A stretch of DNA of 64,000 nt from an uncultured Microthrixaceae bacterium (GCA_963805905.1 CAWDVV010000001.1:3162259-3226258); one strand, 5' to 3'. Counted from the first letter of the stretch, positions 4,110 to 58,527 are shown. The notes: generated by a model not told the origin, from the letters alone. Program-made: numbers and translations.

Positions 4110-4115
4110 GCGAGC

Positions 4116-38255: not shown

Positions 38256-38304
38256 GTTCTGTGTGGCGTGCGTGGCGCTGAGCGCCACGCACGCCACACA
38301 GAAC
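38256..38304. repeat. 49-bp palindromic element, copy 5 (perfect; flanks extend pairing by 4 bp, CCTC/GAGG)
   Basis: GTTCTGTGTGGCGTGCGTGGCGC-TGA-GCGCCACGCACGCCACACAGAAC, between divergent starts 38176 and 38385. Confidence 0.95.
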
Positions 38305-38384
38305 GAGGGAAAGGGGCGCCGTGACAGGGGCGGGGCGAGGCATGGGTCTACGGCGGGAGTGGGCGGTACCTGTAGCGTTGGTCC

Positions 38385-39801
38385 ATGCGCCGCCTGGCCC
38401 GACTGTTGAGCTACGGGGGCAGTGCCGCAGCGGTGCTGATCCTCAGCGTCATCCACGCGCGTCTACATCGCTGAAATTCCCTACGACTTCATCAACTCCA
38501 GCCGTTTCACCTGGGCGATCGGCTACAGCATCCTGCTGGAGCTCACGTCCTACTCCGTCGGCATGCCCGACCAGCCACGCACGATGCGCCAGGCGTTCTA
38601 TCTCTCTTCGATAGCCGTGGGCGTTGCTGTTGTGGGTGTCTCGATCCCACAACTTGCGATCGGCGATGCGCTCCTTCCACGCTTCGTGGTCTTCGGCTCG
38701 GCGCTGGTGATAATCCCCTGGCAGGTGATGCTCAACGCCATGTCGCGGGGCCGCACCAGGCGGGCCCAGAACCGTGATCGTGTGCTGGTGATAGCCCATG
38801 CAGGCGAGGAACAACAGTTCCGCAACGACCTCGCTCTCAGCCCTGAGAAGGCGGCCCAGTTGGTCGCGTTCCTGACCCCGGAAGAAGTCGCGGGGGCCGG
38901 CGAATACCCGCTGGCCGAGGCCGTGGAGCGATCCGGAGCGACCCTGGTCGTCATGGACACCCATGCCCAGGCCAATGACCGCGTGATCACCCAGGCCGGC
39001 GCAGCTCCACGAGTCGGGGGTCCGACTGCGAACGCTTCAGGACTTCTACGAGGAATGGCTCGGCAAGTTGCCCGTCAGCGAACTGGAGCGCGGCATCGCT
39101 GTTCTTCGACATCGGAGAGGTGCACAGGGTCTACTACGGGCGCCTCAAACGCATGATGGACATGAGCATCGCGTATCCTCGCGATCATTCCGCTCGTCAT
39201 CGTCACGCCGTTCGTGTTGATCGGAAATGTGGTCGGCAACCGGGGTCCGCTCATGTACCGCCAACCCAGGGTCGGAAAGGGGGGCTCCGAGTTCATGATC
39301 TTCAAGTTCCGCACCATGACCGACCACTCCGGCGGGAAGAAGGCCCGACTGAATGCGTCATCAGAAGCGGCGGCCAGCGATACCGGAACACCTGGTGGAG
39401 CAGACGGGAACAGCGCACCGACCACGACGTGGACCCAACAGGACGATCCACGGGTCACCCCCTTCGGGAAGCTGCTGCGACACAGCCACCTCGACGAACT
39501 CCCCCAGGTGATCAACATCCTCAAGGGGGACCTCTCGATGGTGGGACCACGGCCCGAACAGCCCCACTACGTGATGGAACTTTCCGCCAAGTTGCCGTTC
39601 TATGACCTGCGGCACCTGGTGCGCCCCGGACTGACCGGCTGGGCACAGGTGAAGTACGGATACGCGGGCGACGAACGCGACGCCCTCGAGAAGCTCCAGT
39701 ACGAGTTCTTCTACCTCCGACACCAGAGCCTCAGCTTCGACAACCGCATCATCCTCCGCACGGTGCGGGCGATGATCGGCGGCCAGGGCAGCGGTCGCTG
39801 A
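38385..39801 (+). pseudogene. polyprenyl-phosphate glycosyl-1-phosphate transferase (WbaP/EpsB-like sugar transferase), about four frameshifts
   Basis: The C-terminal catalytic domain is intact in ORF 39214..39801 (PLMYRQPRVGKGGSEFMIFKFRTM...LDELPQVINILKGDLSMVGPRPE...GLTGWAQV). The N-terminal TM and linker parts are spread over three frames (MRRLARLLSYGGSAAAVLILSVI / VYIAEIPYDF...IIPWQVMLNAM / AQLHESGVRLRTLQDFYEEWLGKLPVSELER / SLFFDIGEVHRVYYGRLKRMMD). Junctions are near 38455, 38995, 39095 and 39172. Confidence 0.75.
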
Positions 39802-41112: not shown

Positions 41113-41270
41113 ATGCCTGGTGGCCATCGGATTTCCCACGCATCGGGGGGGGCTGGAGACTCATGCGTGGCGTCGAATGTGCCGATGAGAGATGAATGGA
41201 CCGTCGACGCCGCAACGCCCACGTGCCGTTGCTGCCGCGTGTAAGCGCACCCTCGTCGCGTGACGCCTCA

Positions 41271-41432
41271 CCGCCTGACACCTCTGGCGCCTCGTCGCCC
41301 GAAACCTCACCGCCCGACACCACACCGCCTGACACCTCTGACACCTCGCCGCCCGAGACCTCGCCGCACGACACCACACCGCCTGACACCTCTGGCGCCT
41401 CGCCGCCCGAGACCTCGCCGCACGACACCATT
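41271..41432. repeat. three 54-bp tandem repeats (encode PPDTSGASSPETSPPDTT-like 18-mers in the + frame)
   Basis: Units at 41271-41324, 41325-41378 and 41379-41432, aligned by eye. In frame with ORF 41196..43370. Confidence 0.85.
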
Positions 41433-41552
41433 GGCGCCTCGGATCTCGCAGGGCAACGATTCAACCGACGTGCAACGGACGGGACTCCGGACAGCAGCGT
41501 TGAGAACCCGCCACGCGGGGCAGGAGACGCAGGAGCCACCGATACGACCGGG

Positions 41553-43370
41553 ATGCGGATGCCGCGGGGCAATCGCCGACTGTGGATCAACGCGGCGGCG
41601 CTGGCCCTGGCGCTCATCGCTGTCGTGGCAGTCATGCGACCCCGCGCGGTCGTCGTGCCCGACGAGGGCCTTTACCTCGCTCAGGCCGATGCGCTCACCG
41701 ATAGCTCCTGGTCGGTCGAACGTGAGGCCCCCGAGGTCGATGCCGACGGGGAGTTCTCGCGCCTGTTGCCCGAAGTCATCGCCGGTGACCGTGAGATTCC
41801 GTATGCACGCCACGCCGGCTACCCACTGGTGATCACACCGGGTTACTGGCTCGGTGGCTACCTCGGCGCAATCGCTCTCTCGGTGCTGGGTCTGTGGGGC
41901 GCCGCGGTCAGCGGAGCGTTCATCGCCAGGCGGATCGACAAGCGTCTCGGCGTTCCAACACTGTGGCTCATCGGACTCGGCAGCCCGCTCCTGTTCTACG
42001 GCTTCGTCACGATGGGCCATGCTCTCGCCGCGGCGACTGCGGGCGCGGCGTTCCTGGGCCTCAGCAAATGGTTGGACGACCGGAGTTGGCCGGGTCTGGC
42101 ATTCGGGCTGCCGGCGCTGTTGCTGACCGTGGGCCTGCGCAGCGAGGGAACGATCTACGCGCTCGCAGTGGTCGCTGCCATCGGGCTCATGTCCCTGCCG
42201 GCGAGGAGGACCCGACGACTCGATCTGCGTGCGTTCCTCACCGCGGGCGCGCTCGGAGCCGCGGTGTTGGCCACCTACTTCCTCGACACACGCGTGGCCC
42301 TGGCCATCTCGGGTCGCGACGGCTACGGAGTGAACCCGGGACGGATCGCCACCAGGGCGAGCGCGGACCCGGTCTCGGGATCATGGGCGAGCCTGTTGCG
42401 ACCGTTCGCCAACTCCTGGAGCACCGCCGCGTTGTGGGTCACGCTCGCAGCGGTTCTGGTGATCGGGGCATCGGTGGTCCTACGGGTCGCTCCGAAGCGC
42501 TCACGCATCTCCCTCGTGCTGATGGTGGCAGCGGTCGGCGCGGCTGTGGCGATGTTGGTCGATCCACCATGGTTGGTAACGGGCATGATCGCCGCGTTCC
42601 CGCTGCTGGCGGCAGGTCTGATCTGGTTGAGGCGCTCAGACCTGGTGCCTACCTCGACGGACCAGCCACCCGAGCGAGCAACGTCATCCGACCTGGCGAC
42701 CCCTGCGGCCGACCAGGAGTCAACGACGGGAGCCTCGCCGGTTGGGTCACCAACGCTCGTGTTGCGGATCATCCTCGTGTCGGTGATAGCGACCACCGGC
42801 CTCATCGCCACGCTGTACGCCAACGGCGGCGCCGCCGAGTGGGGCGGACGGTTCTTCCAGATCCTCCTTCCGATCCTCGTGCCTGTCGTGGTGCTCGGGC
42901 TGTACCGCGCGGCGAGCGAGTTCCCGATCCCTCAACGCCGGATCGCGATTGCGTGTGGGGTGTTGGTGACCGCGGCCCTCTCGATCAGCGCACTGCGCGC
43001 CCAGGCCGATATCCGAGCCGATGCGACAGATACCGTCGATGGGACCCTCGCGTACGTCGCACGGGAGTTCCCGGGCGAGACGACGCTGGTGGTGGTCGCC
43101 AACAAGAACGCGGGCGGCAACTCGCGGCAGTTCTGGGCCGCGGACTCATCGGCAGATGTGCTCACCGCCATGAACCTCGACCGGTTGGATCTGGCGCTCG
43201 AGGCGGCTGCGGGGGCCGGTCGAAACCGCGCGGTGGTCGTCACCGATGCGGACCCCGACGAGTTCGACGACTCGATAACCGGTGACCTCGACGGGATCGG
43301 CTGGACGGTACTCGACTCGTCGGCCACCCCGAGGGGTGAATCGAACCTGTACGTGGTCGGTGAAGGCTGA
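41553..43370 (+). CDS. GT-C fold membrane glycosyltransferase (ArnT/PMT-like), polytopic
   Basis: The first extracytoplasmic loop carries VVPDEGLYLAQA (a DExxY-type motif of GT-C enzymes). More than 10 predicted TM helices. C-terminal soluble domain. The ORF is open from 41196, so the repeat-rich 119-aa extension may or may not be translated. Confidence 0.6.
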   Translation: MRMPRGNRRLWINAAALALALIAVVAVMRPRAVVVPDEGLYLAQADALTDSSWSVEREAPEVDADGEFSRLLPEVIAGDREIPYARHAGYPLVITPGYWLGGYLGAIALSVLGLWGAAVSGAFIARRIDKRLGVPTLWLIGLGSPLLFYGFVTMGHALAAATAGAAFLGLSKWLDDRSWPGLAFGLPALLLTVGLRSEGTIYALAVVAAIGLMSLPARRTRRLDLRAFLTAGALGAAVLATYFLDTRVALAISGRDGYGVNPGRIATRASADPVSGSWASLLRPFANSWSTAALWVTLAAVLVIGASVVLRVAPKRSRISLVLMVAAVGAAVAMLVDPPWLVTGMIAAFPLLAAGLIWLRRSDLVPTSTDQPPERATSSDLATPAADQESTTGASPVGSPTLVLRIILVSVIATTGLIATLYANGGAAEWGGRFFQILLPILVPVVVLGLYRAASEFPIPQRRIAIACGVLVTAALSISALRAQADIRADATDTVDGTLAYVAREFPGETTLVVVANKNAGGNSRQFWAADSSADVLTAMNLDRLDLALEAAAGAGRNRAVVVTDADPDEFDDSITGDLDGIGWTVLDSSATPRGESNLYVVGEG

Positions 43371-43379
43371 TCAACGGTG

Positions 43380-43428
43380 GTTCTGTGGGGCGTGCGTGGC
43401 GCGCAGCGCCACGCACGCCCCACAGAAC
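43380..43428. repeat. 49-bp palindromic element, copy 6 (perfect)
   Basis: GTTCTGTGGGGCGTGCGTGGCGC-GCA-GCGCCACGCACGCCCCACAGAAC, between convergent genes. It is followed at 43432-43463 by an exact 16-bp tandem duplication (CAAAATCGGGGAGGAC x2). Confidence 0.95.
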
Positions 43429-43464
43429 CAGCAAAATCGGGGAGGACCAAAATCGGGGAGGACC

Positions 43465-46275
43465 TCAGGGGGGCGGACCGAGCACGCCACCAGTGGGCAC
43501 GACACATCCGCTACCCGCGCAGAGCTGCCACCCGGTGACTGTGGCGTCGGCGAGCGGTGCCCCGGCATTCTGGAACACGGCAGCGCGTGCCACGCCGCGG
43601 GGAATCCAGTTGCCGCCATCGTCCTTGATCTTCGAGACGATCCGCACTTCGCGCTGGCCCGGTCCGCAGCAAAGCACTCCTACCGTTCCGTCAACATCCG
43701 CCGAGCTACCGATCGAATGGACCTGCATCGAACCCGAAACGATCGGATCCATGTCAACAGGTCCCTCCCAGCGAACGTCCAGACTTATCCGAGGTGTCAC
43801 CATGTTCCCGTGTACCCGGAACCGTGTGCCCGCACCATCGGAGGTGACGCGACCCCGGTGCAGCGTGGAGGAGGAGTTCGTAGTGGCCACCAGGCGCACA
43901 TAGTCGAGTTGGGGCAACTGCAGGCCTATGTCGTCCCTCAGAATATCGCCCAGCCACATTCCCTTCTCGGGGCTCATCGACAGACGAACCGTGATGTCGT
44001 TGAGCACCGACGCGCTGCTGTGACGCAGCGGCGAACACGCCGCGTCGCCAGCGAGGATGTCGATCATGTAGGTGTTGGCCGACCGCGTGTAGGTATTGGG
44101 ATTGGTGGCCGGCACCTCACACGTCTCGGTACCGCCGGCTCCGTCGGGGCGGTCGACCGAAACCCTCGTGGTGCCGAGAACGATCCCGGACTCGATCGGT
44201 CCCGCAACCGCGTTGTCTCCGCCCGCGTTGTCGATAACCAGCGCAAGGCTCTCGATCTGATCATCTGCATCAAGCCCCGACGACCCAAGGTCGAATGACT
44301 TGAGCACCAGTTCGTCTGGACTCGTATCGGCCATGGTTCGCTCGCAAACCCATGTGCCGACCAACTCGTAGCAGTCGCCCTCAGGGTGAACTGCAGCGCC
44401 ACCACCCGCAGCGATCGCCTTGTTCGGGTCGGTCCATTGCGAACCACTGGGTGACGTAGCGACTCCAGCGTTCACCTCATGGGCGTTGACCATCATGTTC
44501 AGGCCTCGGACCTTGAGACGGATGGTTTCCGCCGTGCCTATGGGGGCATACGGCGGCTGGTAGTCGAAGGCCACCTCCATGTGTGCACCATTGAGAGCAC
44601 TCTCTGGTTGCCCGGGGAAACAACTCGAGAGATCTACCGTCGTGACGAATCCAGGTGTTCGACCAACATTGGGTTCATAGATGCTGCATGCACTCGGGCC
44701 GCCGGTGATCGTCACCTTCGCACCGCGTCGGGAACCGTGCGCTGGTGGACTCTCGCTTGAGGTCCACGCGACCTTCAGGTCGTGGATCGGGCGATCGCCC
44801 TCGGCCTGAAGGTCGACCCCGAATCTCAGGACACATGCAATCGTGGAGTTGGCACACACAACCGTGCCGGTCGCATCGTCTGACCCCTGGGCGTCGGCAA
44901 GCACATTCCCGACGCTCGAGAAATCGTCGTCCTGGAGCCAATAACAATTCCACCACTGCTCGCAGTACCACATCACGTCGTGTCGCTTCGTCGTGGCGTT
45001 CGACCGCTTGATCCCGCTCGGAGCGGTACTGGACTCGACAATCGCATCGCCCGTTCCGCCAGGAGCGCAGATGCTCACGTTGCCGGCCTCATGGTCAATC
45101 GTGGTCCTGCTGGAGAGAACCAGTCTCACGCCGGCCGCTGAGGCCGGATTGCATTCGGCGGTCGGCCCTGAACCCTCGACGGTGCCGAACACGAATGCGG
45201 AGCCGGCATCAGCGAAGGTGATCGCGTCACCGTTGTTGCGCGCTCCGAACCAGTAGTCGCCCGGGTTGAAGTGGAAAAGCGTGCCGCTGCAGCTCCCATC
45301 GAAGAGGTTGTTCATCGCGTCGATCTGAGCACTGCCGTAATCTCCGGGATCGAAGGTGACCGTGGGGGAGGAACACGCCGGCACCTGACCCGGGACTCCA
45401 GTTGGCCCATCCGTGACCAATGTCGGCCCGAGGGAAGCCGTCGCCGAATCGCCACAGCTCGGGGAGATCGTGTCATCGACTACCGCGGTGCGACTCAGGT
45501 CTCCCCCCAACCCGGATCCCAGGTCGAGCATCCCGCAGTCCTGACCAGAACCCGGGTATCCAGGATCCCCCTGCACATAGCTGCCCGACACGTCGATGGC
45601 ACCCGTCTCGCCAGGCAGGTTGAGCAACGGCGCCGCACCCTTGCGCACCGACATGCTCCCGTTGATGAGCAGAGGCTGATCCGCGTTGTGGACGACCGTC
45701 GGCTTCGTGCTCGCGTCCGGCCCAGGAGTGCCCAACGCATCGCTCCATGGCCAGCCAGTCCAGTCCAGTCCATCGGGTAGTACCTCGGAATAGTCGTCCC
45801 CGACCACTTCGACACTGCCCGCTGAGGACCCAAGGCTGTTGCCGAGGACCTCTTCACAATCAACATCCACTGTCACATCGTCGGTGATGTCGTCAGTGCC
45901 GGAGTTGAAGTCGATTTTGTCGACCTCGGGATCGGGATCTGCGAGCGGTTCACAGAGATCCGTGCTCCCGGTGTTGGCTGCAGTGCGTATACGAGTCAGT
46001 GCGGTTTCCAGACCGCCGTCAGCTGCCCGTTGTTCGCGGGCGATCTCCTGCTGGGATATCGCCGCCCGATGTGTCGTGAACGACAACGAGAGGAGAGCAG
46101 TGATCAACAGCAGTCCCACGGTCATCGCCACCAGCACGACCCCGAGTATGTAGCCCGACTGGTTCCCGGTCTGGCGCCGCCGGCGCGTGAGGATGGAACC
46201 CCTCGAGTCGAGGGGCGCGAAACTCTCGGCACCTGTTTCTGGGATCTCGTGCGCCTGATAGAGGATTGACGTCAC
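43465..46275 (-). CDS. giant PilX-like membrane-anchored pilus-associated protein (936 aa), candidate tip adhesin
   Basis: N-terminal basic stretch plus a single TM (RRRRQTGNQSGYILGVVLVAMTVGLLLITALLSL), as in PilX_N-type minor pilins. The remainder is Cys/Trp-containing with no domain I recognise. The GTG start overlaps the stop of the upstream PKD prepilin (GTGA). Confidence 0.7.
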   Translation of the reverse strand: MTSILYQAHEIPETGAESFAPLDSRGSILTRRRRQTGNQSGYILGVVLVAMTVGLLLITALLSLSFTTHRAAISQQEIAREQRAADGGLETALTRIRTAANTGSTDLCEPLADPDPEVDKIDFNSGTDDITDDVTVDVDCEEVLGNSLGSSAGSVEVVGDDYSEVLPDGLDWTGWPWSDALGTPGPDASTKPTVVHNADQPLLINGSMSVRKGAAPLLNLPGETGAIDVSGSYVQGDPGYPGSGQDCGMLDLGSGLGGDLSRTAVVDDTISPSCGDSATASLGPTLVTDGPTGVPGQVPACSSPTVTFDPGDYGSAQIDAMNNLFDGSCSGTLFHFNPGDYWFGARNNGDAITFADAGSAFVFGTVEGSGPTAECNPASAAGVRLVLSSRTTIDHEAGNVSICAPGGTGDAIVESSTAPSGIKRSNATTKRHDVMWYCEQWWNCYWLQDDDFSSVGNVLADAQGSDDATGTVVCANSTIACVLRFGVDLQAEGDRPIHDLKVAWTSSESPPAHGSRRGAKVTITGGPSACSIYEPNVGRTPGFVTTVDLSSCFPGQPESALNGAHMEVAFDYQPPYAPIGTAETIRLKVRGLNMMVNAHEVNAGVATSPSGSQWTDPNKAIAAGGGAAVHPEGDCYELVGTWVCERTMADTSPDELVLKSFDLGSSGLDADDQIESLALVIDNAGGDNAVAGPIESGIVLGTTRVSVDRPDGAGGTETCEVPATNPNTYTRSANTYMIDILAGDAACSPLRHSSASVLNDITVRLSMSPEKGMWLGDILRDDIGLQLPQLDYVRLVATTNSSSTLHRGRVTSDGAGTRFRVHGNMVTPRISLDVRWEGPVDMDPIVSGSMQVHSIGSSADVDGTVGVLCCGPGQREVRIVSKIKDDGGNWIPRGVARAAVFQNAGAPLADATVTGWQLCAGSGCVVPTGGVLGPPP

Positions 46276-48383
46276 GGTCGCGTCACCTCAGCCGAGTACG
46301 GACCCCACGTGCCACTCACCTGCACCCGGTGGCTGACCGTGACCGAACACCCGGGATACGCGGTCGTGAACGACGGAGCTTCGTTGATCGGGACAGTCAC
46401 ATCCGACGGACCCGGACACCCGGCCCCACCACTCGCCGAGACATGCACTCCGTAGGTCTGTGCTCCGGGTACTGCCGCCCACTTGTAGACGTTGCCGGCG
46501 AAGGTCCCCGGCGCCGGAGCTACCAGAGCGCCCGGGACTGACAGCTGCAACGTCTTGAAAGTGGATGCACCGTCGTCGTCAACCACCCCGAGCGTGACGT
46601 TGTAGGCACCGGGGTGTGTGAACAGCTGGGTCGGGTTGGCTGTGGTGGAGGTCCAGTTGTTGAAGAAACCGAAGTTCCAGATTCGGCCGTCGATCGTTCC
46701 GTCGTCGCTCGAAGCACTCGAGTCCAGGGTGACCGAGGTCGGGGCATTCCCGATGTCACCCGCGCTGAACCCGGCCACTGGAGCATCGTTGAGGCGGAAC
46801 TCCACCGTGGTGGGCTCACCTCCATCGGGTGTAACTGAAATCTCCCAGTCACCAGCGTCCCCAGCCGTGAACGCATGTGCGAGGGACGGTTGCGTCGAGG
46901 TCGTCACCGGATCGCTACCTCCCTTTCGCCGCAGATCCCAGGAATAGGGCGCCGGAGTGCTGGTCGTGAACGTGACCGCCACAGGCTCGCGGCCGGGGCC
47001 GACCGTGCCGGCCCTAGGCAGCTTGCCCGGGGTGTTGATGAGTCGTCTGCCATCTTCACCATCGGTGTCGATGACTATCGGCCCTGACGGCACAGGATCG
47101 ATTCCATCCGATGGCAGGAGGCGGATCGCGACGCGCTCCACCGCGGTGGCTCCCATCGAATCGCGCACCGTGACCTTCACCTCGCGGTCACCGAGCGGAT
47201 CGGAATCCGGTGACGACTTGTACTGCACCGTCGCGGTCGATCCGCTGATCACGGTGTTGTCCGGATCGTTCCCTGGGCCGAAGTCCCATGCATATGTGAC
47301 CGGATTGGTGCTGTCGGGATCGTAGGACCCATCCGCTTTGAACTTGAACGTCATGGGCGAATCGCCACCCTGGATCGGCCCTTCGGACGCACCATCCAAG
47401 GCGAGCTTTGCAATCGGTGCCTGATTTTCGACCCGGATGGTTATGCGATCGGTCGATGTGTCAGTTCCGTCCCCGACGGTGAGCGTCACCTGATATGTGC
47501 CGATCTCGGCAAAGGTGAAGGTGACCTGGGTGTCCGAGGGACCGTCGACCTGTCCAATCAGGTCCGGATCCACCGAAACGGGTGGCGTCACCGACCATAC
47601 ACGGGTGACGATCGACCCGTCGGGGTCACTGGAGGTGGAGCTGTCGAGCACCACGTTGTAATTGGGACGCACGCCGCCTTGGGAGATCTGGGTTATCCGC
47701 GCCCGTGGCACGAGGTTGCCGGTACCACTAAGGAACGCCCCGTTCAGAGTGGCACGCCGCATGGCACGCACGTTCACCGGAGCGCCGCCCGAGAGCTCGG
47801 CGGTGAAGGTCACCTGACGGCAATCGGTGAGAGGGTCATCGGTGACAGGGGCGCACGTGGCCGCGGGCTCGGACCCGGTTGTCATCTTGATGTCTCGCAA
47901 CACATGTACGTCGTCGGTGACGACCTTGGTGTCGTTGAGGCCACAAGTCCTGCGCCACACGCTGGTGATGCCATCGTCGGTGTTGGTTACGTACACGGTG
48001 CGCACAGGCACCTCGGTGCCGTCGTCGACGTCGTCGACCAGCTGCATCAATACCAAGTCCGCGTCGGGCGCCCCAGCCGTGTAGGTCCCACAACCCTGCG
48101 CAGGATCAGCTGGATCGAAACCATCGACCTTCACCAACTCGGCGGAGCCGACGTCGCGCGACAGGTATGTGTTCGCAATTCGGGCCTGACTTGCTTCACT
48201 GAAGCGGGTAGCGGTGGGGCCCTGAGTCTTCATCGCGAGGATCATCCAGGCGGTGATAGGGCCGATGAGAAGCACGGTCACCGCAGTGGCAACGAGTATC
48301 TCGATCAGGGAGAAACCTCCCTGCGCGGAGATGGAGCGAAGGGACCGTCGGGGTCGCACCAGCGCTTGGTCGGAAAGGCTCAT
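46272..48383 (-). CDS. prepilin-type N-terminal cleavage/methylation-domain protein with multiple PKD-like domains (PilW-like position)
   Basis: QGGFSLIEILVATAVTVLLIGPI class III signal. Several PKD-like repeats (LDSSTSSDPDGSIVTRVWSV, ADGSYDPDSTNPVTYAWDFG, LDSSASSDDGTIDGRIWNFG). ATGA overlap with the upstream gene. Confidence 0.75.
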   Translation of the reverse strand: MSLSDQALVRPRRSLRSISAQGGFSLIEILVATAVTVLLIGPITAWMILAMKTQGPTATRFSEASQARIANTYLSRDVGSAELVKVDGFDPADPAQGCGTYTAGAPDADLVLMQLVDDVDDGTEVPVRTVYVTNTDDGITSVWRRTCGLNDTKVVTDDVHVLRDIKMTTGSEPAATCAPVTDDPLTDCRQVTFTAELSGGAPVNVRAMRRATLNGAFLSGTGNLVPRARITQISQGGVRPNYNVVLDSSTSSDPDGSIVTRVWSVTPPVSVDPDLIGQVDGPSDTQVTFTFAEIGTYQVTLTVGDGTDTSTDRITIRVENQAPIAKLALDGASEGPIQGGDSPMTFKFKADGSYDPDSTNPVTYAWDFGPGNDPDNTVISGSTATVQYKSSPDSDPLGDREVKVTVRDSMGATAVERVAIRLLPSDGIDPVPSGPIVIDTDGEDGRRLINTPGKLPRAGTVGPGREPVAVTFTTSTPAPYSWDLRRKGGSDPVTTSTQPSLAHAFTAGDAGDWEISVTPDGGEPTTVEFRLNDAPVAGFSAGDIGNAPTSVTLDSSASSDDGTIDGRIWNFGFFNNWTSTTANPTQLFTHPGAYNVTLGVVDDDGASTFKTLQLSVPGALVAPAPGTFAGNVYKWAAVPGAQTYGVHVSASGGAGCPGPSDVTVPINEAPSFTTAYPGCSVTVSHRVQVSGTWGPYSAEVTRP

Positions 48384-48826
48384 GGCATGCCTACCACTAC
48401 TTGGCCCCTGGCGGTTTCAAGACCCACGTCAACCTCGAGCACGAGTCGGTGTGCAAGCGAGTCAGTTGCCGGACATGCACCGAAACCGCCCGTATCAGGA
48501 TCCCAGTGCTCGATGCTGTCCACCGTGACAACCGTGTCGGGGTCGGACCAACCCAAGCCCGACGACACGTAGGCCTCATAGGAATCCTGGTAGTCCTGCG
48601 CCGTCGGACACGTAGAGGTCGAGGTTGGATACGGCATGGACCGGATCGACTCCGACGCGCTTGACAGCGCCGAGTCGAGTGTCTGCTGATGGTTGGCGGC
48701 GTCGGAACTCCGAAGCGCCGTGAGCAGACCCACCGCCAACGCGAGAATCACCATGGACGTGAGTGCAATGCTTATGATCACTTCCACTAGGAGAAAGCCG
48801 TGGTCGTCATGGCTACGCACTCGCAC
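48380..48826 (-). CDS. small prepilin-like protein (PilV-like minor pilin)
   Basis: DDHGFLLVEVIISIALTSMVILALAVGLL prepilin-type hydrophobic N-terminus. First gene of a three-gene overlapping operon. The start may be the second GTG (48820). Confidence 0.7.
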   Translation of the reverse strand: MRVRSHDDHGFLLVEVIISIALTSMVILALAVGLLTALRSSDAANHQQTLDSALSSASESIRSMPYPTSTSTCPTAQDYQDSYEAYVSSGLGWSDPDTVVTVDSIEHWDPDTGGFGACPATDSLAHRLVLEVDVGLETARGQVVVGMP

Positions 48827-49144
48827 TCTCCCTTCGTCCTAGTGGAAACGCCGAATCATCCACCCTCCAGCAGTGGACACTCCGACCGGCGGGCCGCCCC
48901 GTTTGCCCAACACGCAAGCGTTCCTGCTTTTGGGCGCCGCGTCAAGGTCGTGGAGGGGGGATAAGTCCCCAATCCTGTGTTCACCCATACGCCTGGCTAC
49001 TGCCGGACCGCCCACAACAGCGCTTTGCCACTGCCTGCGATTGGCTTCGCAGAGGTGCCCCGTACACTGAAAGGACCCTAAGAGCGCCTCCTGGCAGCTC
49101 GGGGCGTTGATAGTCAGTTCGAGCGAAGCAGGGAAGGGCGCCGG

Positions 49145-52100
49145 ATGACCGAGGTCACCGACGAGACGGGCCACAGGGCAGGCGGGCGCCCCAGCCGTGG
49201 ACCAACGCCTGCGCCCCGCGAGATCCACCTGGGTTCATATCTCGTGAGGTTGCCGTCACCTAACGACCCCCGTCTCCACCTGGCAGTGGTCACCACCGCG
49301 CTCCAGGTTCTGGGTCAGACAGTGTTCGGTTTCAATGTGTCGATCGCGGAGATCCTCGTCACCATCACCGTGTGCGGGCTGATCGACTTCAGCGTGACAC
49401 TGGTACGGGATCACGCGATCGCATGGCCCGCCAGCGGCCTACTCACCGGCAACGGCATCGCCCTGATCCTGCGTGTACCTGGAACCCAGAACGGCGACTG
49501 GTGGTCGTTTCGGAGTTGGTGGATCTTCGCGGGAGCAGGAATCCTGGCACTGGCCTCCAAGTACCTGATCCGGGTGCATGGCCGCCACATCTTCAACCCG
49601 TCGAACATTGCCCTGGTGGTGACGTTCGTGCTCCTCGGGTCGGGACGAGTTGACCCACAGGTGTTGTGGTGGGGCCCTTTCAGCGCGGGTCTGGTTCTCG
49701 CGTTCGCGGTGATCCTCGCTGGGAGTGTGGTGATCACACGCAAAGTTGGCCAGAGCGCAAGCGCATTGTCGTTCTGGGTTGTGTTCGCGACGGCTGTCGG
49801 ACTGATCGCCGCCACCGGCCACAGCATCACAGCGAGTTGGCATGTTGGTGCCATCTCAGGTTGGGACTACTGGGTACTTCTGGTGACCTCACCCGAGGTG
49901 CTCGTATTCCTCTTCTTCATGATCACCGACCCGAAGACCGCTCCTTCACAACGACGAGGACAGGTCATCTACGGCGCAGCGATCGCGTTGGTGGGTGCGG
50001 CGATCATCGCCACCCAGGGCGACGAGTTCGGCACCAAGGTCGGCATACTCGCGGGACTCACCCTCATCAGCCCGTTTGTCGGCTTGATCAGGGCCCACGC
50101 CTCGAGTTGGACCGCTACGCGTCGTTTCGGTCTCCGGGTCGGAGGCGCGATCAGCGTTTCCCTTGCGGCGGTAGCACTGCTCGCATCCACTACGGGGAGC
50201 GCAGCAAGGGTTGCGGTCACCGCCTCGCCCGAACACAGGGCCGACTTTCCGGTCGACATGTCTTCGCTACCGGAGGTGGCGATAGATCCACCGGAGGAGC
50301 GACTCTCCACGGACCTCGACCAGGTTCTCGCAAACCAACTCGCTCACGACGTGATCCAGGATCTCGAGATGGAAGCTTCCGCGTTGGGACCCAAGATGTG
50401 GAGCTTGCACGTGAGGTTCTCGCATCAGGACGACTCAAGGCGGTGGAGGGCGCCATCCACTCGGGCACCACCCAAGGCGATGTCATCGAGTACGACATCG
50501 AGTCTCTTCGAGCCGTCGTCCTACCGGCCTCCTCGGGCCCGCAGGCGCCGCCGGCACTCGGCGTGCATGCGCGCGGCGCAGGTGTCGGTCGACAATGAGG
50601 CGGCTGACCTGGACGCCATCTACCTCACACGCGAGACCGACGGGGTCCACCTGATCACGGGCGCGGTTTCGCCCGACGGGAAAAGATTGCCACCGCCGGC
50701 AGTCGAACGCGACAGCGCAGACAGCGCCGATGAGCCCGAGCTACCGGCCGCGCCGTCAAACTCGCCCGCGGCCATCCCTCCCCCCTGGAACCCGGGTGAC
50801 CCAGCACTCGGATCTCTGACCTTCACCGAAGTGACCGCCCAAGCTGGCCTGGACGAACCGTATGCAGCGGTTCCGCTCAGAGATGACGAGGGGATGAGCT
50901 CAGGTGTTGCTGCGGCCGACATCGACAACGATGGCGACATCGACCTCTTCGTCCCCCGCTTCGGCAAGCCCGATGCCCTGTTCGTCAACGACGGGGCGGG
51001 ACACTTCTCCGATATCGCCGCCTCAGCCGGGGTCCAAGGACCCGACGATGGGCAGGGGTCGGCGACCGGGTCCTTCGCAGACCTGAACGGCGATGGTCAT
51101 CTGGATCTGATCGTGATCGGAACTGGCACACGTTCCAACCGGTTGTACATGAACAGGGGCGACAACACATTTTCCGATGAGACGTCCGAACGCGGAATAC
51201 CGACAACGGATCTGGTCGATTCGGGTGAGAGCAACCAGATGCACGATGTCGCCATAGCCGACGTGAACGGTGATGGAGCACTCGACCTGCTCCTGCTCCA
51301 TTGGTGGGACACCCTGACCCAGGGAGACTCAGCAGTCGACTCAGTGGAAGCGGAGATTGCTGTGCGCGGCAACGGCATCCTCGACTCTTCGGGGTGCGCA
51401 CGATCCACGGTGTTGCGTGAGGCGGGGTTCCCGGTCGACGACGATTCCGGCCCGAACCGCTCAGCTCTCATGCTCAATGACGGCAAGGGCCACTTCTCTG
51501 ATGTCACGAACGAATACAACCTCCCGCTGGATGAGGTCGTGGCGTTCACCGGTGAATTCAACGATCTCGACGGTGACGGCCTCCCGGATCTGGCCATTAC
51601 CGGCGACTACTGCACGCTCGCGCCTGTTCAAGAACGTCGATGGCAAACGTTTCGAGGATGTGACTGCGGACGCCGATGTGGCCACCGACGAGAACGCCAT
51701 GGGTTCGGTGATCAGGGACGTGAACGGCGACGGACTGGCCGACTGGCTCGTGAGTTCGATCAGCAACCCGAGCGATGATCCTCCACCTGTTCCCTCTGGT
51801 TCCGGAAATCGCCTCTATCTGAACAACGGAAACATGACCTTCAAGGACGCCACCGATACCTACGGCCTCCGCGACGCCGGTTGGGCCTGGGGTACGGCCG
51901 CCGAGGACTTCGACAATGACGGAACGCTCGAGATTGCCATGACCAACGGGTTTGATTCCACCGCGTTCAATTCGCAGGTGGATGTGCCCGGCTGGGTCCG
52001 AAAGTACTTCGAGACATTCCGCACAGACAGAACACATTTCTGGTACCGCGACGGCCGGTGTACCGAGACGCGGCAGCTGCGGTTGGAATCAACGACACCA

Positions 52101-52503
52101 CGATCGGCCATGGGCTGGTCACCTTCGATATGGACGGCGATGGCGACCTGGACCTGCCTGATCACGCCGTCGGATGGCCCGCCACGGCTCTACCGGAACG
52201 ACACCCTCGCCGTGAACCACTGGTTGACGGTGGGCCTTGATGATCCGACGAATCCGGGTAACCGATGGGGCGACGGCGCACGGATCGAGGTGATCACAGA
52301 CACAGGGGATGTCCCTGTCGTTGGCTGGATCTCGACGGGTGGGTCGTACGAGTCCCAGAAGCCGCCGCTGTTCCACGTAGGTCTTGGCACTGACGACGCG
52401 CCGATAGACCGCATCGAGGTGTTCTGGCCCGGCGGGAAACGCCCTCAGGTGCTCAGCAGATGTCGGGGTGGACCAGCAGCTCACCATCAAACGTTCCCGC
52501 TGA
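49145..52503 (+). pseudogene. RnfD/NqrB-like polytopic membrane domain fused to FG-GAP/VCBS beta-propeller and ASPIC/UnbV-like C-terminus; at least 4 frameshifts
   Basis: The membrane part carries FFMITDPKTAPSQRRGQVIYGAAIAL (RnfD/NqrB signature region). C-terminal FG-GAP repeats include DIDNDGDIDLFV, DLNGDGHLDLIV, DVNGDGALDLLL, DLDGDGLPDLAI, DVNGDGLADWLV, DFDNDGTLEIAM and DMDGDGDLDL. The ASPIC/UnbV-like end is GARIEVITDTG...GGSYESQ...RIEVFWPGGK...DQQLTIKRSR*. Frame changes are near 51615, 52050, 52155 and 52450, and possibly a compensating pair near 50390 and 50590. Confidence 0.7.
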
Positions 52504-52526
52504 AGGCGATCCAGCCACCCCAGGAA

Positions 52527-53367
52527 CTACCCCACAACGGCGTCGAGTATCGGACCTGACAGTCCGATGCACAAGAACGTGGCGGCCACCATGGCCGGCC
52601 CGAAAGGCACCTTTGCCTTGCGGCCCCTTGCGCCGAGCGCCACGAGACCCAGCAGGAGCCCGATCATCGCCGAGGCACCCATGGCGAGCACACCCATGAA
52701 CACAGCGCCCAGGACCGAGCCCTGGGCGTAGAACCCCAGGACGAAACCAAGCAACGCAGCGAGGCGTACGTCGCCGAACCCCATGCCCTGGGGCATCGCG
52801 AACCAGAGCAGGAACAGCGGCCCGGCGAACACAGCCAGCCCCACCCCGCACTCAGCAACCAGCGCCACTCGCCTTCGATCCCTGCAGCCACCACGCAGAG
52901 AGCAACTGCGACGAGAAGCGGGCCAGACGATGCGCGTGGGCACGATCAGGGTGCGCAGGTCGATGACGGCCACCGCCACGCCCACCGGGATCAGCCAGAG
53001 CACCGGCAGCGATGTCCACTCGAACCCCAGAATCAGAACCGCCGCAAGGAAGAGAGCAGGAACGCGCGAACTCGACCACCGGGTGGAACGCCGGGATGCG
53101 TTCGCCGCAACCGCGGCACCGGCCCCGGAGCACGAGCCAGGACACGACCGGGATGTTGTCGGCCGCGGTCACCTCGGCACCACAGCTGGAGCACCGGCTC
53201 CGGCCGCCGAACACCTCGCGCCACGGACGCGTGTCCCACAGCTCGCCGAACTCGTTGGGCTCGTCGAGCGCCAGTGGCAGACGATCGATCACCACACAGG
53301 TGAACGACCCGATCGCCACGAAAGCGAGCGTCCCGAAGACGAGCATCAGGATTTCAGCGGTGCTCAC
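52527..53367 (-). pseudogene. pilD: prepilin peptidase / N-methyltransferase PilD, multiple frameshifts
   Basis: Cys-rich N-terminal box (RSRCSSCGAEV...LRGRCRGCGERIP) in ORF 52852..53451. Peptidase A24 TM core (VAVIDLRTLIVP...GMGFGDVRLAALLG...KVPFGPAMV) in ORF 52527..53003. Middle pieces fall in a third frame (ORF 52664..52894). Confidence 0.75.
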
Positions 53368-54534
53368 GCATGGGCTCCCGGCGCGCCGGCGCCCGACCAC
53401 GAAGTGGGCGGGAGCGGGAATGTCGGGATCGATCTTGGTGTGCGCTGCCAAGGCCGGCGATCTCGTCGGGATGACACCGAAGCGGCAACAGCGTCCTCGT
53501 AGCTGATGATGCCGCGGTGCACCAGAGCTGCCAGGGACTGCTCCATGACCATCATCCCGTCCTTCTGGCCGGTGGCGATCAGGTTGCGGAGCTGGCGGAC
53601 CTTGCCCTCACGGATGATGTTGGAGATCGCCGGGGTGCCCATCAGCACCTCGTAGGCGGCCACGCGGCCGCCGCCGATGCGGGGCACCAGGCGCTGCGAG
53701 AGCACCGCGGCCAGCGCCATGGAGAACTGGGTGCGGATCTGGTCCTGCTGGTCGGACGGGAACACGTCGATGATGCGGTCGACGGTCTGTGCAGCGTCGT
53801 TGGTGTGCAGCGTCGCGAACACCAGGTGGCCGGTCTCGGCCAGGGTGAGCGTGAGCGCGATAGTCTCGAGGTCGCGCATCTCGCCCACGAGCACCACGTC
53901 GGGGTCTTCGCGTAGTGCCGCCTTGAGCGCCTCGGCGAACGACACGGCAGTCCTGGCCGACCTCGCGCTGGTTGACCAGCGCCTGCGCGGAGTGGGTGGA
54001 TGTACTCGATCGGGTCCTCGATGGTGAGGATGTGCAGCGGGCGGTTGCGGTTGATCCAGCCGATCATCGCCGCCAGCGTGGTGGACTTGCCCGAGCCGGT
54101 CGGGCCGGTCATCAGCACCAGCCCGTGGGGCCGCTGCAGCAGCGGGGCGGTTGCGTCGGGCAGACCCGATCTCCTCGGGGGTGGGGATCTCGGTGGGAAT
54201 GAGCCGCAGGGCGAGCGCCGGGCGGTCGAGCTGGAAGAAGGCGTTGGCCCGGAAGCGGGCGGCGTCGCCCCAGGTGAAGGCGAAGTCGAGCTGGCGCTGC
54301 GCGCCGGAACTCCTCGAATCCCGAATTGTCGAGTAGGGAACCAGCCGCTTGGTCCGCGCCCAGCACCTCATCCATGAATTCGACGGTCACGACCGGCGAT
54401 TCTGGGATTGCGACCAGGCGACCGTCGATACGGACCCTGGCCTGGGTGCCGGCGGCCAGGTGCAGGTCGGTGGCGCTGTTGTCCCACAGGTAGCGCAGGT
54501 AGAGGTCGATCAGGGATGTATCTGGTGAGTACAT
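53364..54534 (-). pseudogene. pilT: type IV pilus retraction ATPase PilT-like, at least 3 frameshifts
   Basis: N-terminus with ATDLHL in ORF 54112..54633 (ATG 54534, strong GGGGGAGGA RBS). Walker [14 protein letters not shown] in ORF 53642..54118. [16 protein letters not shown]...[11 protein letters not shown]...AISNIIREGK in ORF 53364..54371. The 3' boundary is uncertain. Confidence 0.8.
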
Positions 54535-54604
54535 GAGAGGTTCCTCCCCCCGGTGATGTCCGAGAGTATTCGGTCGAAGTGAGTCCAACTGGTTCTTAAA
54601 ACGG

Positions 54605-54639
54605 TATCGGGTGGGACCGGAAACCGGCCCCACCCGATA
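54605..54639 (-). terminator. intrinsic terminator downstream of the major pilin gene
   Basis: 11-bp stem TATCGGGTGGG/CCCACCCGATA with an internal CCGG-AAA-CCGG. On the transcribed (minus) strand it is followed by CCGTTTTAAG. It lies 25 nt after the pilin stop. Confidence 0.6.
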
Positions 54640-54663
54640 GAAGGTTGTGCTGCTGGTCCTGGA

Positions 54664-54999
54664 TCAGCAGGTAGCCGGAGCACCAGCCACGGGGCTAGCC
54701 GCCACAGCAGTCGTGTTGTTGCCGGTGACCTCGTAGTACTCACCATCATTGGCTTCGAGGAAAGCCTCGGCGTCGTACTGGGCGGAGGTGGAGCCCTTGG
54801 ATGCTTCAACGGCGGTCTGGACCATGCGCTTCTCGATCGAGCAGGCCGAATCCTGCGCCGAGCCGGTCACGTTGCCGACTGCGAACACGACGACGCCACC
54901 GAGGATCGCCAGGATGGCGATGACCACGAGGAGTTCGATCAGTGTGAATCCACTCTGGCCCCGGTTCTCCATACGCTTCTGTACAAATGCATTCTTCAT
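54664..54999 (-). CDS. type IV major pilin (prepilin with class III signal peptide)
   Basis: MKNAFVQKRMENRGQSG|FTLIELLVVIAILAILGGVVVF. Small 111-aa protein. GGGAGAA RBS. C-terminal Cys. Confidence 0.85.
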   Translation of the reverse strand: MKNAFVQKRMENRGQSGFTLIELLVVIAILAILGGVVVFAVGNVTGSAQDSACSIEKRMVQTAVEASKGSTSAQYDAEAFLEANDGEYYEVTGNNTTAVAASPVAGAPATC

Positions 55000-55152
55000 T
55001 TGGTTCTCCCTTTGGAAGTGAATGGAAGCGCCGATCGCCCCCACAGTTTGGTTTGGATTGCCCTCAGACCTGATGTCAGGAGCGAGGCTCCAAGGTCATA
55101 CTGTCAACCTTGGAGTCTGTGTTCACGCTCGGCTTCTTGCTGGACATAAGTC

Positions 55153-55180
55153 ATCGTACAGGAAACAATCTGAAATACAA
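55153..55180 (-). promoter_or_regulatory. candidate sigma70-type promoter for the pilin gene (TTGTAT-N16-TACGAT on the minus strand)
   Basis: Read on the minus strand in the AT-richer 340-bp gap upstream of the pilin. It would give a leader of about 150 nt containing a 9-bp inverted repeat (55088-55115). Based on the hexamer match only. Confidence 0.3.
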
Positions 55181-55341
55181 CATAGGTTGTGCTACCCATT
55201 TCGGCCGCCAAGCGACTGGGCAGAAAGGCCCATGGAACCCGCATCACGTGGACCCAGCATCTCAGGTGTGGTCACTCTGCGACGGCGATGCTTTCCCGGA
55301 TACCGAAATGGCGAACGAGCGACACCGGCACCTGTACAAGA

Positions 55342-58300
55342 TCAGCCGATCGACCAGTCCTCGATCTGCAGGCCCGAGCCAGGGCCTCCCACGTCGTTGA
55401 TACGCACCTTGGCGGTGCCTACCACCCGAGCGCCTCCGGGATCCGGAACCGTAGCCGTCAGCTCCACGATCCGCTCGGCCGGTTTGGTGGGCGAACAACA
55501 GATCACCCCGGCCTCGCCACCCGCTCAACGTAGCTACCCAGCGACGCCAGGATCATGTGCCCCCCCGATCGCCACCGATTCTCCGGATCGGTCCGTAGGA
55601 GGAGCTGGTCCGTTCCAACGCAGGTTCAGGTCGTTGCGTGGCATCGACACCTGTCCGAAGATGTTGAACGAAGAATCGTGTGATGGACCGTCTCCCATGG
55701 TCATCAGGGCTGGAGCCCGTGGCTTGGTGTATTGACCCGAGGTGACCGTCGAGAGCCGCACGGAGTCGATCCGGACACCGAAGTCGGCTCCACCGAATGT
55801 CGTCCCGTTGCGCTCGACATGGACCTCGAGCACCGCAGTTGCCCCAATGAGCTGTTCGGAGCTGGTCAATACCGTGTGACAGGTACCGGCAACGTCTCCA
55901 TCGAGGAGATCGAGGTACACACCCTGGCCCCAGAAGGGCACTCGTGACCAGTAGGCAACACAGGAGCCGCCCGGTGTGTCGCGCATGTTCGAGATCGTGA
56001 CCCGCATCCATGAATCCTTGGAAATGTCGGGCTCACCATTTATGTCGTAGAAGCTCCCGTGGGTGAAGAAGTTCTGGTCGGTGGTCTCACCGGTGACGAT
56101 GACCCCGCGAGCGTTCCAACGTCCCGTCAACAGGTACGTGAGGGGAGGTGAAGTTGTCGAAACCGGTCATCGTGACCTGCCGGGTGGCGCTCGGACACGA
56201 TCCGGTCCAACCGCAGCCACTGGGCCGAGTAGCCAGAATGTTCGCCGTCGGTCTTCAGGACGTTGTTGGCATTGTTCCAACCCGATCCGGGGGTAGCGCC
56301 GCTGGGCACCAGTACCACCCGGCCTGCAGTTCGAGGCCGTCCAGGAAGATTCGGTTGGTATACGTACCGAAGCCGAACGAAACGTTCTTGTTGAGCCTGA
56401 AGCTCACGTCCACCCCAGCACCTTCAAGGTCCTGGCGGGTCAGGCCCACGTCCTTGCATCTGGGAGTCGACCCGACCTGATCCGCGACCGGTGACATCAG
56501 GTCATACGCGAGGGTCGGGCGTAGGTGCCCAATCGAGTCCGGTATGTACGGGAAATAGACCGCACACGCAACCGTCGATGGATTGGTGGCACGATAGAAC
56601 TTGATCTCGGTACCGATCTTGCCACTCGAATAGAAGGTGAACCCCCGATCGGTACCGTCTGACTGCGCACGCACCAACAGGTCCAGCGAGTCCAGCCGTC
56701 CCGCTCTGGGCGGAACACCGGCTGGATTCCACGAGCCCTGTACTTCACGTCACCGGCACACTTGCCATTGAAGATGATCGAGCAGGTGAACTGCGCCGTC
56801 GAGATGTTGTTGTCGATCACCCAGGAGTTCTCCGGGGCATTGACTTGGCACTCCCGCTGTTCCAAGGGAGCCAGTCGGCACCGAACACGCCGCCGACCGC
56901 CTGGTTGATCTCCACCGTCGACAGGGATGGATTCGCGATGCCCTTCCATCCTCCGTCGGCATCGCCGGCCTGCCATATTGCGGCTGGGATGTTGCTGGTG
57001 GACTCCTCGACCGATTGGTCACACATCGCAACCCTGCCCGCCAGTGGCGGATCGTTGTGCGGGGACTCAACTGGACCTCGACACCGGGCGCCGCTGCATT
57101 GCAGGCCTCGGGGAACGTTGACGAGGCAGCGCCGGCGACACTGAAGCCGTCAGTCGGAACCCCGAAGATCACCCGAACAGTGGGGTCGCTGATGATAAGG
57201 CTGTTCCACAGGTTTCGATCCTGAGCTGAGCCGTTGGGCTTTGTCGGGTCGTCGACGTCGAACCAGTACTTGCCGAAGCGCTGGCACTGGCAGAGCGGAA
57301 CCAGAATGTGCGGTTCGGGCAGGTTCCACCGAGGAGGTCATTGAGAGCTGTGGTCTGTGCCTTCCCATAGGCACCTGGGGGCGACTCCACAAGCACCTCC
57401 AGCTGAAGCGCTGCAGCTCGGAGTCGCCACGAACGACGTGAAGGTCTCCCCGAGAGTCGGCCGCAGAGCAACACCTGAGTCGTTCTCGATCTCGTTGAGC
57501 GCGGATCGAGCGCCTGCGCATCGGTAGCTGCCGAACCGCAAATGGGCACGCCCACGAGGCGGTGTCCAATCGCGGACCTGCGCCCCGATCGCGTTCCAGA
57601 AATTGCCCTGCTGCGAAACCCCGCAATCGACACCCAGGACCGAGGAGAACAGGCCGTTGTCACCTTGTTCGTAGCTTCCGGCAACCTCCACCGCCGGCTC
57701 CTGCTGGCTGGAGGAACCATCGTGGCGAGGGCGCCGTGCCTCGCCAGCACGTCGGCCGCGAACTTGAGCGTCTTTTCATTGTCCGGGTTGGTGGAGTCGA
57801 GGTCTGCCGTGTGCACAAGGCTCGGTTTGGCATTCGTGAACTCAGTGGGCGCGTAGCTGGTGTAGTTCGCGGATCCGATGCCGAGGGACCACGGTCCACA
57901 CGATCCAGACCCGCCGCGCCGAGTAGGCAGTCGACGCCCCATGCACGGGTCGGGTGATGAACTCACCGATGGATACCGTCTGCACCCACCAACCGAACAC
58001 TGGGAGCGGTCGCAGCTGGGAAGTCGCTCACGGGCATCGACAGGGTCGATTCCTCGCACGTGCCGGTGACGGTCACGGTGAGTCGTTGCTCGGGAAGTCC
58101 ACCCCCGCAGGATCGATGCAGTTGTCGTTGAGGCCGAGTTCGCCGGAGGGATCCATGCGCAGCATGTTTACGGTGGACTCGAGGGCGTTGTCGGCAGCCC
58201 TCACCTCCTTGGCTGTAAGGATCTCGGAGCGATTGGCCTTCGACGCAGTAAGCGTCATGCTCATCAGCGCGATCAGCGCCACACCGGCCACGCCGACGAT

Positions 58301-58407: not shown

Positions 58408-58527
58408 GAATCCCCCTTCGTCGGGCGACCAGGCTCCCCCACTTGCCGGATCGTGCATCCTTGGTCCTCATCTTTTCGACGTTATAGGTTCTCTAAAACC
58501 CCCGCCGGGGCCGTTCGCAGTGATACG

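Follow-up and report, generated by a model that had tools for sequence, protein, structure and literature searches.

A 64,000-nucleotide (nt) stretch of DNA from an uncultured Microthrixaceae bacterium (GCA_963805905.1, CAWDVV010000001.1:3162259-3226258; the whole stretch is referred to below as the window) carries a three-gene operon, named ABC here after its genes A, B and C, whose products are probably minor pilins, the second such set available to the type IVa pilus encoded in its neighborhood. We propose that the three products form a priming and tip complex of the GspI/J/K kind, that this complex is adhesive, and that it acts as an alternative tip to a paralogous set, A'B'C', embedded in the pilus locus itself. 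We put the probability of this reading at roughly two in three.

The operon comprises three minus-strand open reading frames (ORFs) within positions 48826-43465, all of them intact, and covers 5.4 kb (Table 1). As described in the initial annotation of this DNA, adjacent genes overlap by 4 nt at both junctions, which read ccATGAgc between A and B and ccGTGAcg between B and C. A Shine-Dalgarno-like AAGGGAG precedes gene A and, because the second GTG (48820) is better spaced from it, this codon may be the true start. An inverted repeat located between the stop codon of C and that of a convergent gene is predicted to fold with a free energy of -64.9 kcal/mol (z -9.9, with 0 of 200 shuffled sequences equally good), and is likely a bidirectional terminator at the 3' end of the operon. 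Overlaps consistent with translational coupling, together with this strong terminal hairpin, led us to treat ABC as a single operon. A scan of 43-49.4 kb for sigma-70 promoters returned no sites, a result that is uninformative for a high-GC actinobacterium, and the one terminator-like match from the same promoter and terminator scan lay inside a gene. Directly after the stop codon of C there is also a perfect 16-nt tandem duplication (43432-43463, CAAAATCGGGGAGGAC twice).

The first two proteins carry class III prepilin N-termini, in agreement with the initial annotation. In A, the leader ends in HDDHG at G10 and is followed by FLLVEVIISIAL, placing FLLVEV after the cut site and Glu at +5. In B, SAQGG precedes FSLIEILVATAV, that is, a class III signal peptide with G23 followed by FSLIE and then ILV. 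The prepilin motif (charged leader, Gly, about 20 hydrophobic residues and Glu at +5) was found in A and B only, and its G, L and E, including Gly-1 and Glu5, are invariant among 50 A-family and 7 B-family sequences. A search with the A-family profile recovered 56 relatives, some of them deposited under names such as GspH family, PilV or PulG pseudopilin, and several A homologues bear precomputed PF07963 (N_methyl) assignments. Matches to the PilV model TIGR02523, below its threshold, were present in 43 of the 50 A-family members (best E 3.6e-9), and we regard A, on its sequence, as PilV-like rather than as a PilV equivalog. An AlphaFold2 (AF2) model of A built from the 50-sequence alignment reached a predicted local distance difference test (pLDDT) score of 93.8, with a 55-residue N-terminal helix (residues 9-63), a short helix and a 4-stranded sheet. 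The predicted fold resembles the pilin "lollipop", in which an N-terminal helix of ~50 residues packs on an antiparallel beta-sheet, an assignment made from the topology and not from a database match. When the A profile was compared with sequences in the PDB, matches were confined to the N-terminal helices of pilins (E 0.005-0.7). The top Foldseek hits for A were pantothenate synthetases (E 0.015-0.2), which are not usable as support.

In B, a signal peptide and a pilin-like module of about 210 amino acids (aa) occupy aa 1-230 (approximately 47694-48383) and are followed by PKD/Ig-like domains (approximately aa 234-318, 320-420 and 532-614) and by a Cys- and Trp-containing C-terminal domain. 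The PKD domains are readily recognized in Pfam (PKD_4, E 7.7e-22; PKD, E 1.1e-15) and match ColH-type PKD structures. The GFxxxE model TIGR02532 is matched by 7/7 B and B' proteins (best E 8.8e-6), and B and B' are alignable across the pilin module. In modular pilins as defined by Raynaud et al. (2021; PMC8179133), at least one domain unrelated to pilins is grafted onto the C-terminal side of a pilin module, and B is such a protein, joining a GFxxxE pilin module (aa 1-230) to PKD domains. These PKD domains are of the adhesion type and would be displayed as adhesins.

The third protein, C, begins with RRRRQTGNQSG followed by YILGVVLVAMTVGLLLITALL (also given as YILGVVLVAMTVGLLL), a basic stretch, a Gly and a hydrophobic segment with Val at +5 and no Glu5. 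Its leader (aa 1-41, with RRRR and an invariant G41) leads into a helix (aa 42-101) and a conserved N-terminal region reaching to about aa 403; the remainder consists of a set-specific beta-sandwich center (aa ~404-788) and a conserved C-terminal region of about 150 aa. Fourteen Cys are invariant in the columns of the family alignment. The AF2 model of C shows a 60-residue helix (aa 42-101) directly after G41 and is beta-rich over residues 290-800. Profile alignment with hhalign placed the N-terminus of C in register with the signal peptide and alpha1 helix of the A family (E 6e-5, probability 65%) and of the B family (E 1e-4, probability 57%). From these models, C appears to be modular as well, combining a helix of the pilin kind with an extensive beta-rich part that carries no domain signature, and its body is predicted to be a beta-sandwich that is possibly glycan-binding. 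In the GspK/PilX design, as established for the tip complexes of type II secretion systems and type IV pili, a pilin-type helix that has Gly-1 and lacks Glu5 sits on the largest, last-encoded subunit. Such a helix, encoded last in a minor-pilin operon, is also what C has, as the product of the third gene in both sets. C thus seems to follow the GspK/PilX design, a likeness of architecture and not of family membership. A word-indexed search found 12 homologues of C, the sole one with a source name being from Microthrixaceae, and an exhaustive representative search extended the family to 166 clusters (50% identity) at E<=1e-3; C therefore stands for a sizeable protein family without an existing domain model. 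Tip adhesins of the PilY1/PilC type are non-pilin proteins that end in a beta-propeller and in many cases start with a vWA domain. The idea that C is a PilY1 homologue was rejected, since C lacks both a propeller and a family match, and its fold matches are of the beta-sandwich type resembling carbohydrate-binding modules (CBM). GspK has itself been discussed as a modular tip subunit (PMC8179133).

The genes of the pilus locus (pilD, pilT, the major pilin, C', B', A', pilC and pilB) are found at 52.5-64 kb. The intact major pilin, with MKNAFVQKRMENRGQSG preceding FTLIELLVV, shares 64-69% identity with N_methyl pilins of the related loci L009 and L012 (related loci are cited by such numbers throughout) and is presumed to be the filament subunit that carries the loaded ABC complex. 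The pilD orthologues in the same two loci carry A24_N_bact/Peptidase_A24 domains. The paralogy between ABC and the three genes within the pilus locus, already pointed out in the initial annotation, is real though distant: tblastn gave 26% identity for A and A' (E 6e-7), 31% for the N-termini of B and B' and 26% for the C-termini of C and C', and the C-family profile matches collinear fragments along 58369-55345. Compared with an intact orthologue of C', C aligns over residues 22-403 (29% identity, E 4e-33) and 789-880 (35%), with the central ~385 residues unalignable; any function specific to one set would reside in this center. In L012, L013 and L014, pilC is followed by A' (157-162 aa), then B' (613-707 aa, with PKD domains), then C' (993-1022 aa, without Pfam match) and then the major pilin, with pilT and pilD after the pilin in L012; all of these genes are intact. 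Being intact between pilC and the major pilin in these three loci, A'B'C' appears to be the standard minor-pilin complement of the pilus in this lineage.

In a neighbor-joining tree of the A family, the pilC-adjacent clade (A') is separate from the clade holding the A of the window, and both are deep. The split between A and A' is therefore an old, fixed duplication in which each copy is bound to its own position. Of the earlier proposal of a duplicated, exchangeable module, the duplication is borne out by this tree and exchangeability is not. A mobile or exchangeable cassette was rejected on the additional grounds that the flanks of ABC are free of repeats and mobility genes and that its position is conserved. 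The window and L009 contain two complete sets, and one pilin and one machine are seen within the 64 kb. Between C' and the major pilin, L013 additionally carries two genes on the opposite strand (8236-10661, minus strand), one for an N_methyl protein of 413 aa and the other for a protein of 394 aa, as does L014; these may be further large pilin-like genes and were not seen in the window.

Our scan of a genome collection returned five loci, all in Microthrixaceae metagenome-assembled genomes, with the genome of the window itself not among them. The order A-B-C is intact and syntenic in L001, L002, L003, L009, L010 and L011. A separating gene was correctly noted earlier in the window, namely a plus-strand FG-GAP/UnbV_ASPIC gene between ABC and the pilus locus. 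The description of the operon as an orphan, on the other hand, does not survive comparison with relatives. In 7/7 related loci with enough upstream flank (L001, L003, L004, L008, L009, L010 and L011), ABC is directly preceded on the same strand by an operon encoding LppM-like, MoxR (AAA_3), DUF58 and TgpA-transglutaminase proteins (hereafter the MoxR operon), and in L008, L009 and L010 this operon is in turn directly preceded, again on the same strand, by pilT-pilD. The ancestral layout thus reads, from these sequences, as pilC-A'B'C'-pilin-pilT-pilD-MoxR operon-ABC, followed further along by aldehyde dehydrogenase and ATP-binding cassette transporter genes, the last two of which are likewise found in the window at 31-37 kb. 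The MoxR operon is absent from the 64 kb of the window, where its place is taken by the divergent FG-GAP/UnbV_ASPIC gene. Because its position behind pilT-pilD and the MoxR operon is conserved in relatives, ABC is no orphan and forms the distal end of an extended pilus neighborhood, with the window as the exception in which the MoxR operon appears to have been lost.

Several results weigh against a pilus tip assignment. Taken alone, A scores below the curated cut-offs of both N_methyl PF07963 (E 0.011, 15.7 bits; cut-off 21.2) and TIGR02523 PilV (E 2.4e-4, 21.6 bits over residues 9-82; cut-off 52.2), and B likewise falls short of N_methyl (E 6.7e-4, 19.6 bits; cut-off 21.2) and of TIGR02532 (14.9 bits; cut-off 16.3). 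When the PDB was searched by Foldseek with the confident model of A, no pilin came up at E<=0.001. For C, the initial annotation had suggested a PilX_N-like N-terminus: the basic stretch and hydrophobic helix are present, and the family resemblance is not, as neither PilX_N (PF14341), GspK nor any other Pfam family was matched by C or 10 of its homologues, even at E<=10. In NCBIfam, C matched nothing besides Verru_Chthon_A at E 0.11, and its profile drew noise only from PDB sequences, for example frataxin. The AF2 model of C is of medium quality only (pLDDT 61.6), and Foldseek matched it to tandem CBM, SGBP-B and tailspike structures at E 6e-7 yet with template modeling (TM) scores <=0.26. Moreover, the immediate upstream partner of ABC in relatives is the MoxR operon and no pilus gene. 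Finally, every pilus assembly gene is frame-disrupted as written in the window.

We examined this last point by frameshift-aware protein-to-DNA alignment against intact orthologues, counting insertions and deletions (indels) of single bases. There are about 50 in the pilus locus and about 56 across the six affected genes aligned, and once they are removed no in-frame stop remains in ~3,500 aligned codons. Identities to relatives after correction are as high as those of intact genes: 80% for pilT (to the intact L008 PilT), 84% for pilC (to L013 PilC), 67% for C' and 59% for B'. The indels are mostly located outside homopolymers, and consecutive ones tend to share their sign, with 6/6 insertions in pilT and deletions for the first ten in C'. 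A codon-usage hidden Markov model showed similar frame switching at ~13.6-17.6 kb and a clean profile over 39.9-48.8 kb. In bacterial pseudogenes, substitutions generally exceed indels. Some 50 neutral indels should have been accompanied by many substitutions, nonsense codons among them, and no nonsense codon is seen, which argues for local assembly consensus error over decay; the damage is most likely a sequence error in a locally unpolished consensus. Genuine decay of the pilus locus, leaving ABC as the sole working set, was rejected for the same combination of indel-only damage and zero nonsense codons. The earlier statement that ABC is the only copy with intact large genes is hence correct for the letters of the window, in which B' and C' can be read only by combining many frames, and probably not for the organism. 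With indel-only damage of this kind in the pilus genes, pseudogene calls in this assembly are untrustworthy. Clusters of indels also break the FG-GAP/ASPIC gene and pilB, the affected regions being 49145-64000, 38290-39175 and ~13600-17600. In other assemblies, the B gene of L004 (7874-9914) and the B and C genes of L008 (8009-12760) are spread over several frames, in contrast to the intact proteins of the window, and frame errors seem common in this family's assemblies, striking different genes in different assemblies.

For the proposed second tip complex we infer the following sequence of events. A, B and probably C would be inserted into the membrane via their class III signal peptides and cut by PilD after the conserved Gly. 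Their N-terminal helices would then bundle as a heterotrimer on the PilC platform, in the manner of GspI-GspJ-GspK or PilV-PilW-PilX, and this heterotrimer would prime polymerization of the major pilin underneath, so that the ABC complex ends up at the pilus tip. C would sit at the apex, since the missing Glu5 is what is expected for a top-most subunit, with B beneath it and A joining the complex to the major pilin. The PKD domains of B (at least three) would be displayed as adhesins, as would the beta-sandwich region of C, a stretch of ~800 aa rich in disulfides. A'B'C' would play the equivalent part, its C' carrying another central module, and one machine could in this way make two tip specificities. 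The case that the module could act as a tip or adhesin complex, as initially suggested, is thus a plausible one, given the PilV and GFxxxE matches at family level, the pilin-like model of A, the PKD domains of B and the intact A'B'C' in relatives.

Alternatively, ABC might build a short pseudopilus of its own, similar to those of type II secretion systems (T2SS) or Hps systems, for export of polymers or proteins or for surface presentation, and never cap a long pilus. Weak matches to Hps pseudopilins point this way (HpsC for B at E 6.3e-6 and for 5/7 B and B' proteins; HpsB for 13/50 A-family members), as do the glycosyltransferase and Bac_transf genes nearby and the transcription of ABC apart from the pilus genes. 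The Hps matches are, however, limited to the N-terminal helix, no examined locus has a dedicated ATPase, platform protein or major pseudopilin with ABC, and the paralogous triple belongs to a complete pilus locus with a retraction ATPase among its genes, which together make a separate pseudopilus unlikely. It is also conceivable that the three proteins are surface adhesins whose N-termini are mere signal anchors and which never polymerize: large PKD and beta-sandwich ectodomains could work from the cell surface, C lacks both Glu5 and a pilin family match, and Foldseek drew no link from A to solved pilins. We consider this improbable in view of the invariance of Gly-1 and Glu5 in 50 A and 7 B sequences, the pilin-type topology of A, and the strict, coupled three-gene order in two paralogous sets, one of which lies between pilC and the pilin gene.

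The conserved company of the MoxR operon, which extends to distant loci whose A proteins are ~35% identical, raises a further scenario in which ABC works with the MoxR AAA+ ATPase, DUF58 and the TgpA-like transglutaminase, for example in chaperoned or cross-linked assembly, and is linked to the pilus by evolution only. The window nonetheless retains an intact ABC without this operon, gaps of 180-230 nt separate TgpA from A where both are present, and MoxR-DUF58-transglutaminase operons commonly occur without pilins in Actinomycetota, so we rate such a partnership as quite improbable. Finally, the existence of a second set in the pilus locus could mean that ABC is a redundant duplicate without current function. 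This is very improbable, because all three ORFs have stayed intact both in the window and in no fewer than six further assemblies, where identities are 38-63% and the motifs and Cys are conserved.

The second minor-pilin set has clear counterparts among known systems. Minor pilins and PilY1 form a complex that primes the pilus and sits at its tip (PMC7541494). ABC resembles the GspI-J-K and PilV-W-X sets (the latter with FimU and PilY1) in its small-medium-large gene run, in the Gly-FxxxE motif of the first two proteins and Gly-1 without Glu5 in the largest, in the embedding of a paralogous set within a pilus locus, and in its presumed role in priming and tip display (PMC7541494). It differs in having three proteins instead of four plus PilY1, in lacking a PilY1-like beta-propeller, in its monoderm actinobacterial host, and in size, as B and C exceed typical orthologues 3-5 times, in line with what the initial annotation had remarked; moreover, the curated cut-offs of the PilV, GspI, GspJ, GspK and PilX_N models are reached by none of its proteins. 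In Myxococcus xanthus, three minor-pilin/PilY1 clusters (cluster_1 to cluster_3) serve one machine, and two of them are each sufficient alone for piliation (PMC7541494). There, several paralogous sets are thought to serve one major pilin and machine, with one set away from the core, as may hold for the two sets of the window, whereas each M. xanthus set has four pilins and PilY1 compared with three pilin-like proteins here, and the two hosts belong to different phyla with different envelope types.

Adhesion modules grafted onto pilins are what modular pilins present (PMC8179133). In the monoderm type IVa pilus of Streptococcus sanguinis, one small (PilA) and two modular minor pilins (PilB and PilC, with vWA and lectin modules) are modeled as a complex at the tip with host proteins and glycans as its ligands (PMC8179133, PMC9934059), glycan binding being a property of the PilA-PilC tip complex (PMC9934059). 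ABC instead offers a PKD array and a ~800-aa Cys-rich beta-sandwich, no sequence relationship between the two systems was detected, and S. sanguinis has one set only. The Verru_Chthon cassette (TIGR02598, TIGR02599 and TIGR02600) similarly combines prepilin-type proteins with a protein of more than 1000 aa that has a PilX-like N-terminal anchor. All matches to it were far below cut-off (C to cassette protein A, E 0.11; one of 50 A-family sequences to protein B, E 0.0011; one of 7 B-family sequences to protein C, E 4e-4), and on sequence grounds we treat the resemblance as a lead and not as membership. In a 2019 review, actinobacterial type IV pili are those of the Tad/Flp type (PMC6916266), and our literature search found no study on minor pilins of actinobacterial type IVa pili. 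Minor-pilin tip sets, the presence of several sets per genome and modular pilins are therefore already known (PMC7541494, PMC8179133, PMC9934059), and the earlier claim that the module is uncharacterized holds narrowly, for the version found in this lineage. What is new is the lineage, the three-component make-up with two giant subunits and the unmodeled C family, and not the kind of system.

Table 1. Features of the window and of related loci, with single-base indels counted against intact orthologues
Feature	Position	Strand	Description	+1 insertions	1-nt deletions
Gene A	48380-48826	-	148 aa, GTG start; small PilV/GspI-like minor prepilin (predicted)	0	0
Gene B	46272-48383	-	703 aa, ATG start; predicted modular prepilin	0	0
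Gene C	43465-46275	-	936 aa, GTG start; giant GspK/PilX-like subunit (predicted)	0	0
Inverted repeat	43378-43430	.	perfect 25 bp, 3-nt loop; between convergent stops of C and the 724-aa gene
Intergenic region	48827-49144	.	divergent; flanked by gene A and the FG-GAP/ASPIC gene and presumed to contain the operon promoter
A'	60549-61025	-	158 aa, intact; ATGA overlap onto B'; in-locus paralogue of A	0	0
B'	58400-60552	-	3' limit approximate; PKD domains; paralogue of B; 7 indels	5	2
C'	55345-58385	-	limits approximate; orthologue of intact 1022-aa L013 protein; 20 indels	4	16
Major pilin	54664-54999	-	111 aa from ATG 54999
pilD	52531-53367	-	A24-family prepilin peptidase by orthology; readable through 3 indels	2	1
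pilT	53350-54534	-	retraction ATPase	6	0
pilC	61167-62412	-	platform protein, T2SSF by orthology; 14 indels	6	8
pilB	62680-63847	-	PilB-like extension ATPase fragments (Walker motif), split across frames; limits approximate
FG-GAP/VCBS + UnbV_ASPIC gene	49145-52559	+	separates ABC from pilus locus; split over at least 2 frames
724-aa gene	41196-43370	+	convergent to C; without Pfam family	0	0
Bac_transf	38290-39175 (38.3-39.2 kb)			6	0
MoxR operon in relatives	L001 2399-7276; L003 2051-7177; L004 ~2161-7113; L008 ~2510-7317; L009/L010 5609-9822; L011 1-1719		directly upstream of ABC, same strand

Two neighbors of the operon deserve a brief comment. The convergent 724-aa gene occupies the same position in L001, L003 and L005 (55-61% identity) and is absent from L004, L007, L008, L009 and L011. 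The N-terminal part of the protein encoded at 49145-52559 has a weak match to NQR2/RnfD/RnfE-like membrane domains (E 8e-8).

Microthrixaceae include filamentous bacteria important in wastewater foaming and bulking. A more far-reaching and decidedly speculative idea, which is unlikely to hold as a whole, is that pilT-pilD, the MoxR-DUF58-TgpA genes and ABC are one functional unit in which the chaperone and transglutaminase mature, cross-link or anchor the second tip complex, with C as a new class of GspK-like tip pilin whose swappable central module sets substrate specificity; if so, the center of C would confer specificity, for example, for the lipids or polysaccharides to which sludge filaments attach. 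The proposed second minor-pilin set in itself provides a compact and testable model, with one machine, two three-gene tip sets and two giant modular subunits in each, and the ABC locus could show how monoderm pili acquire adhesive specificity.

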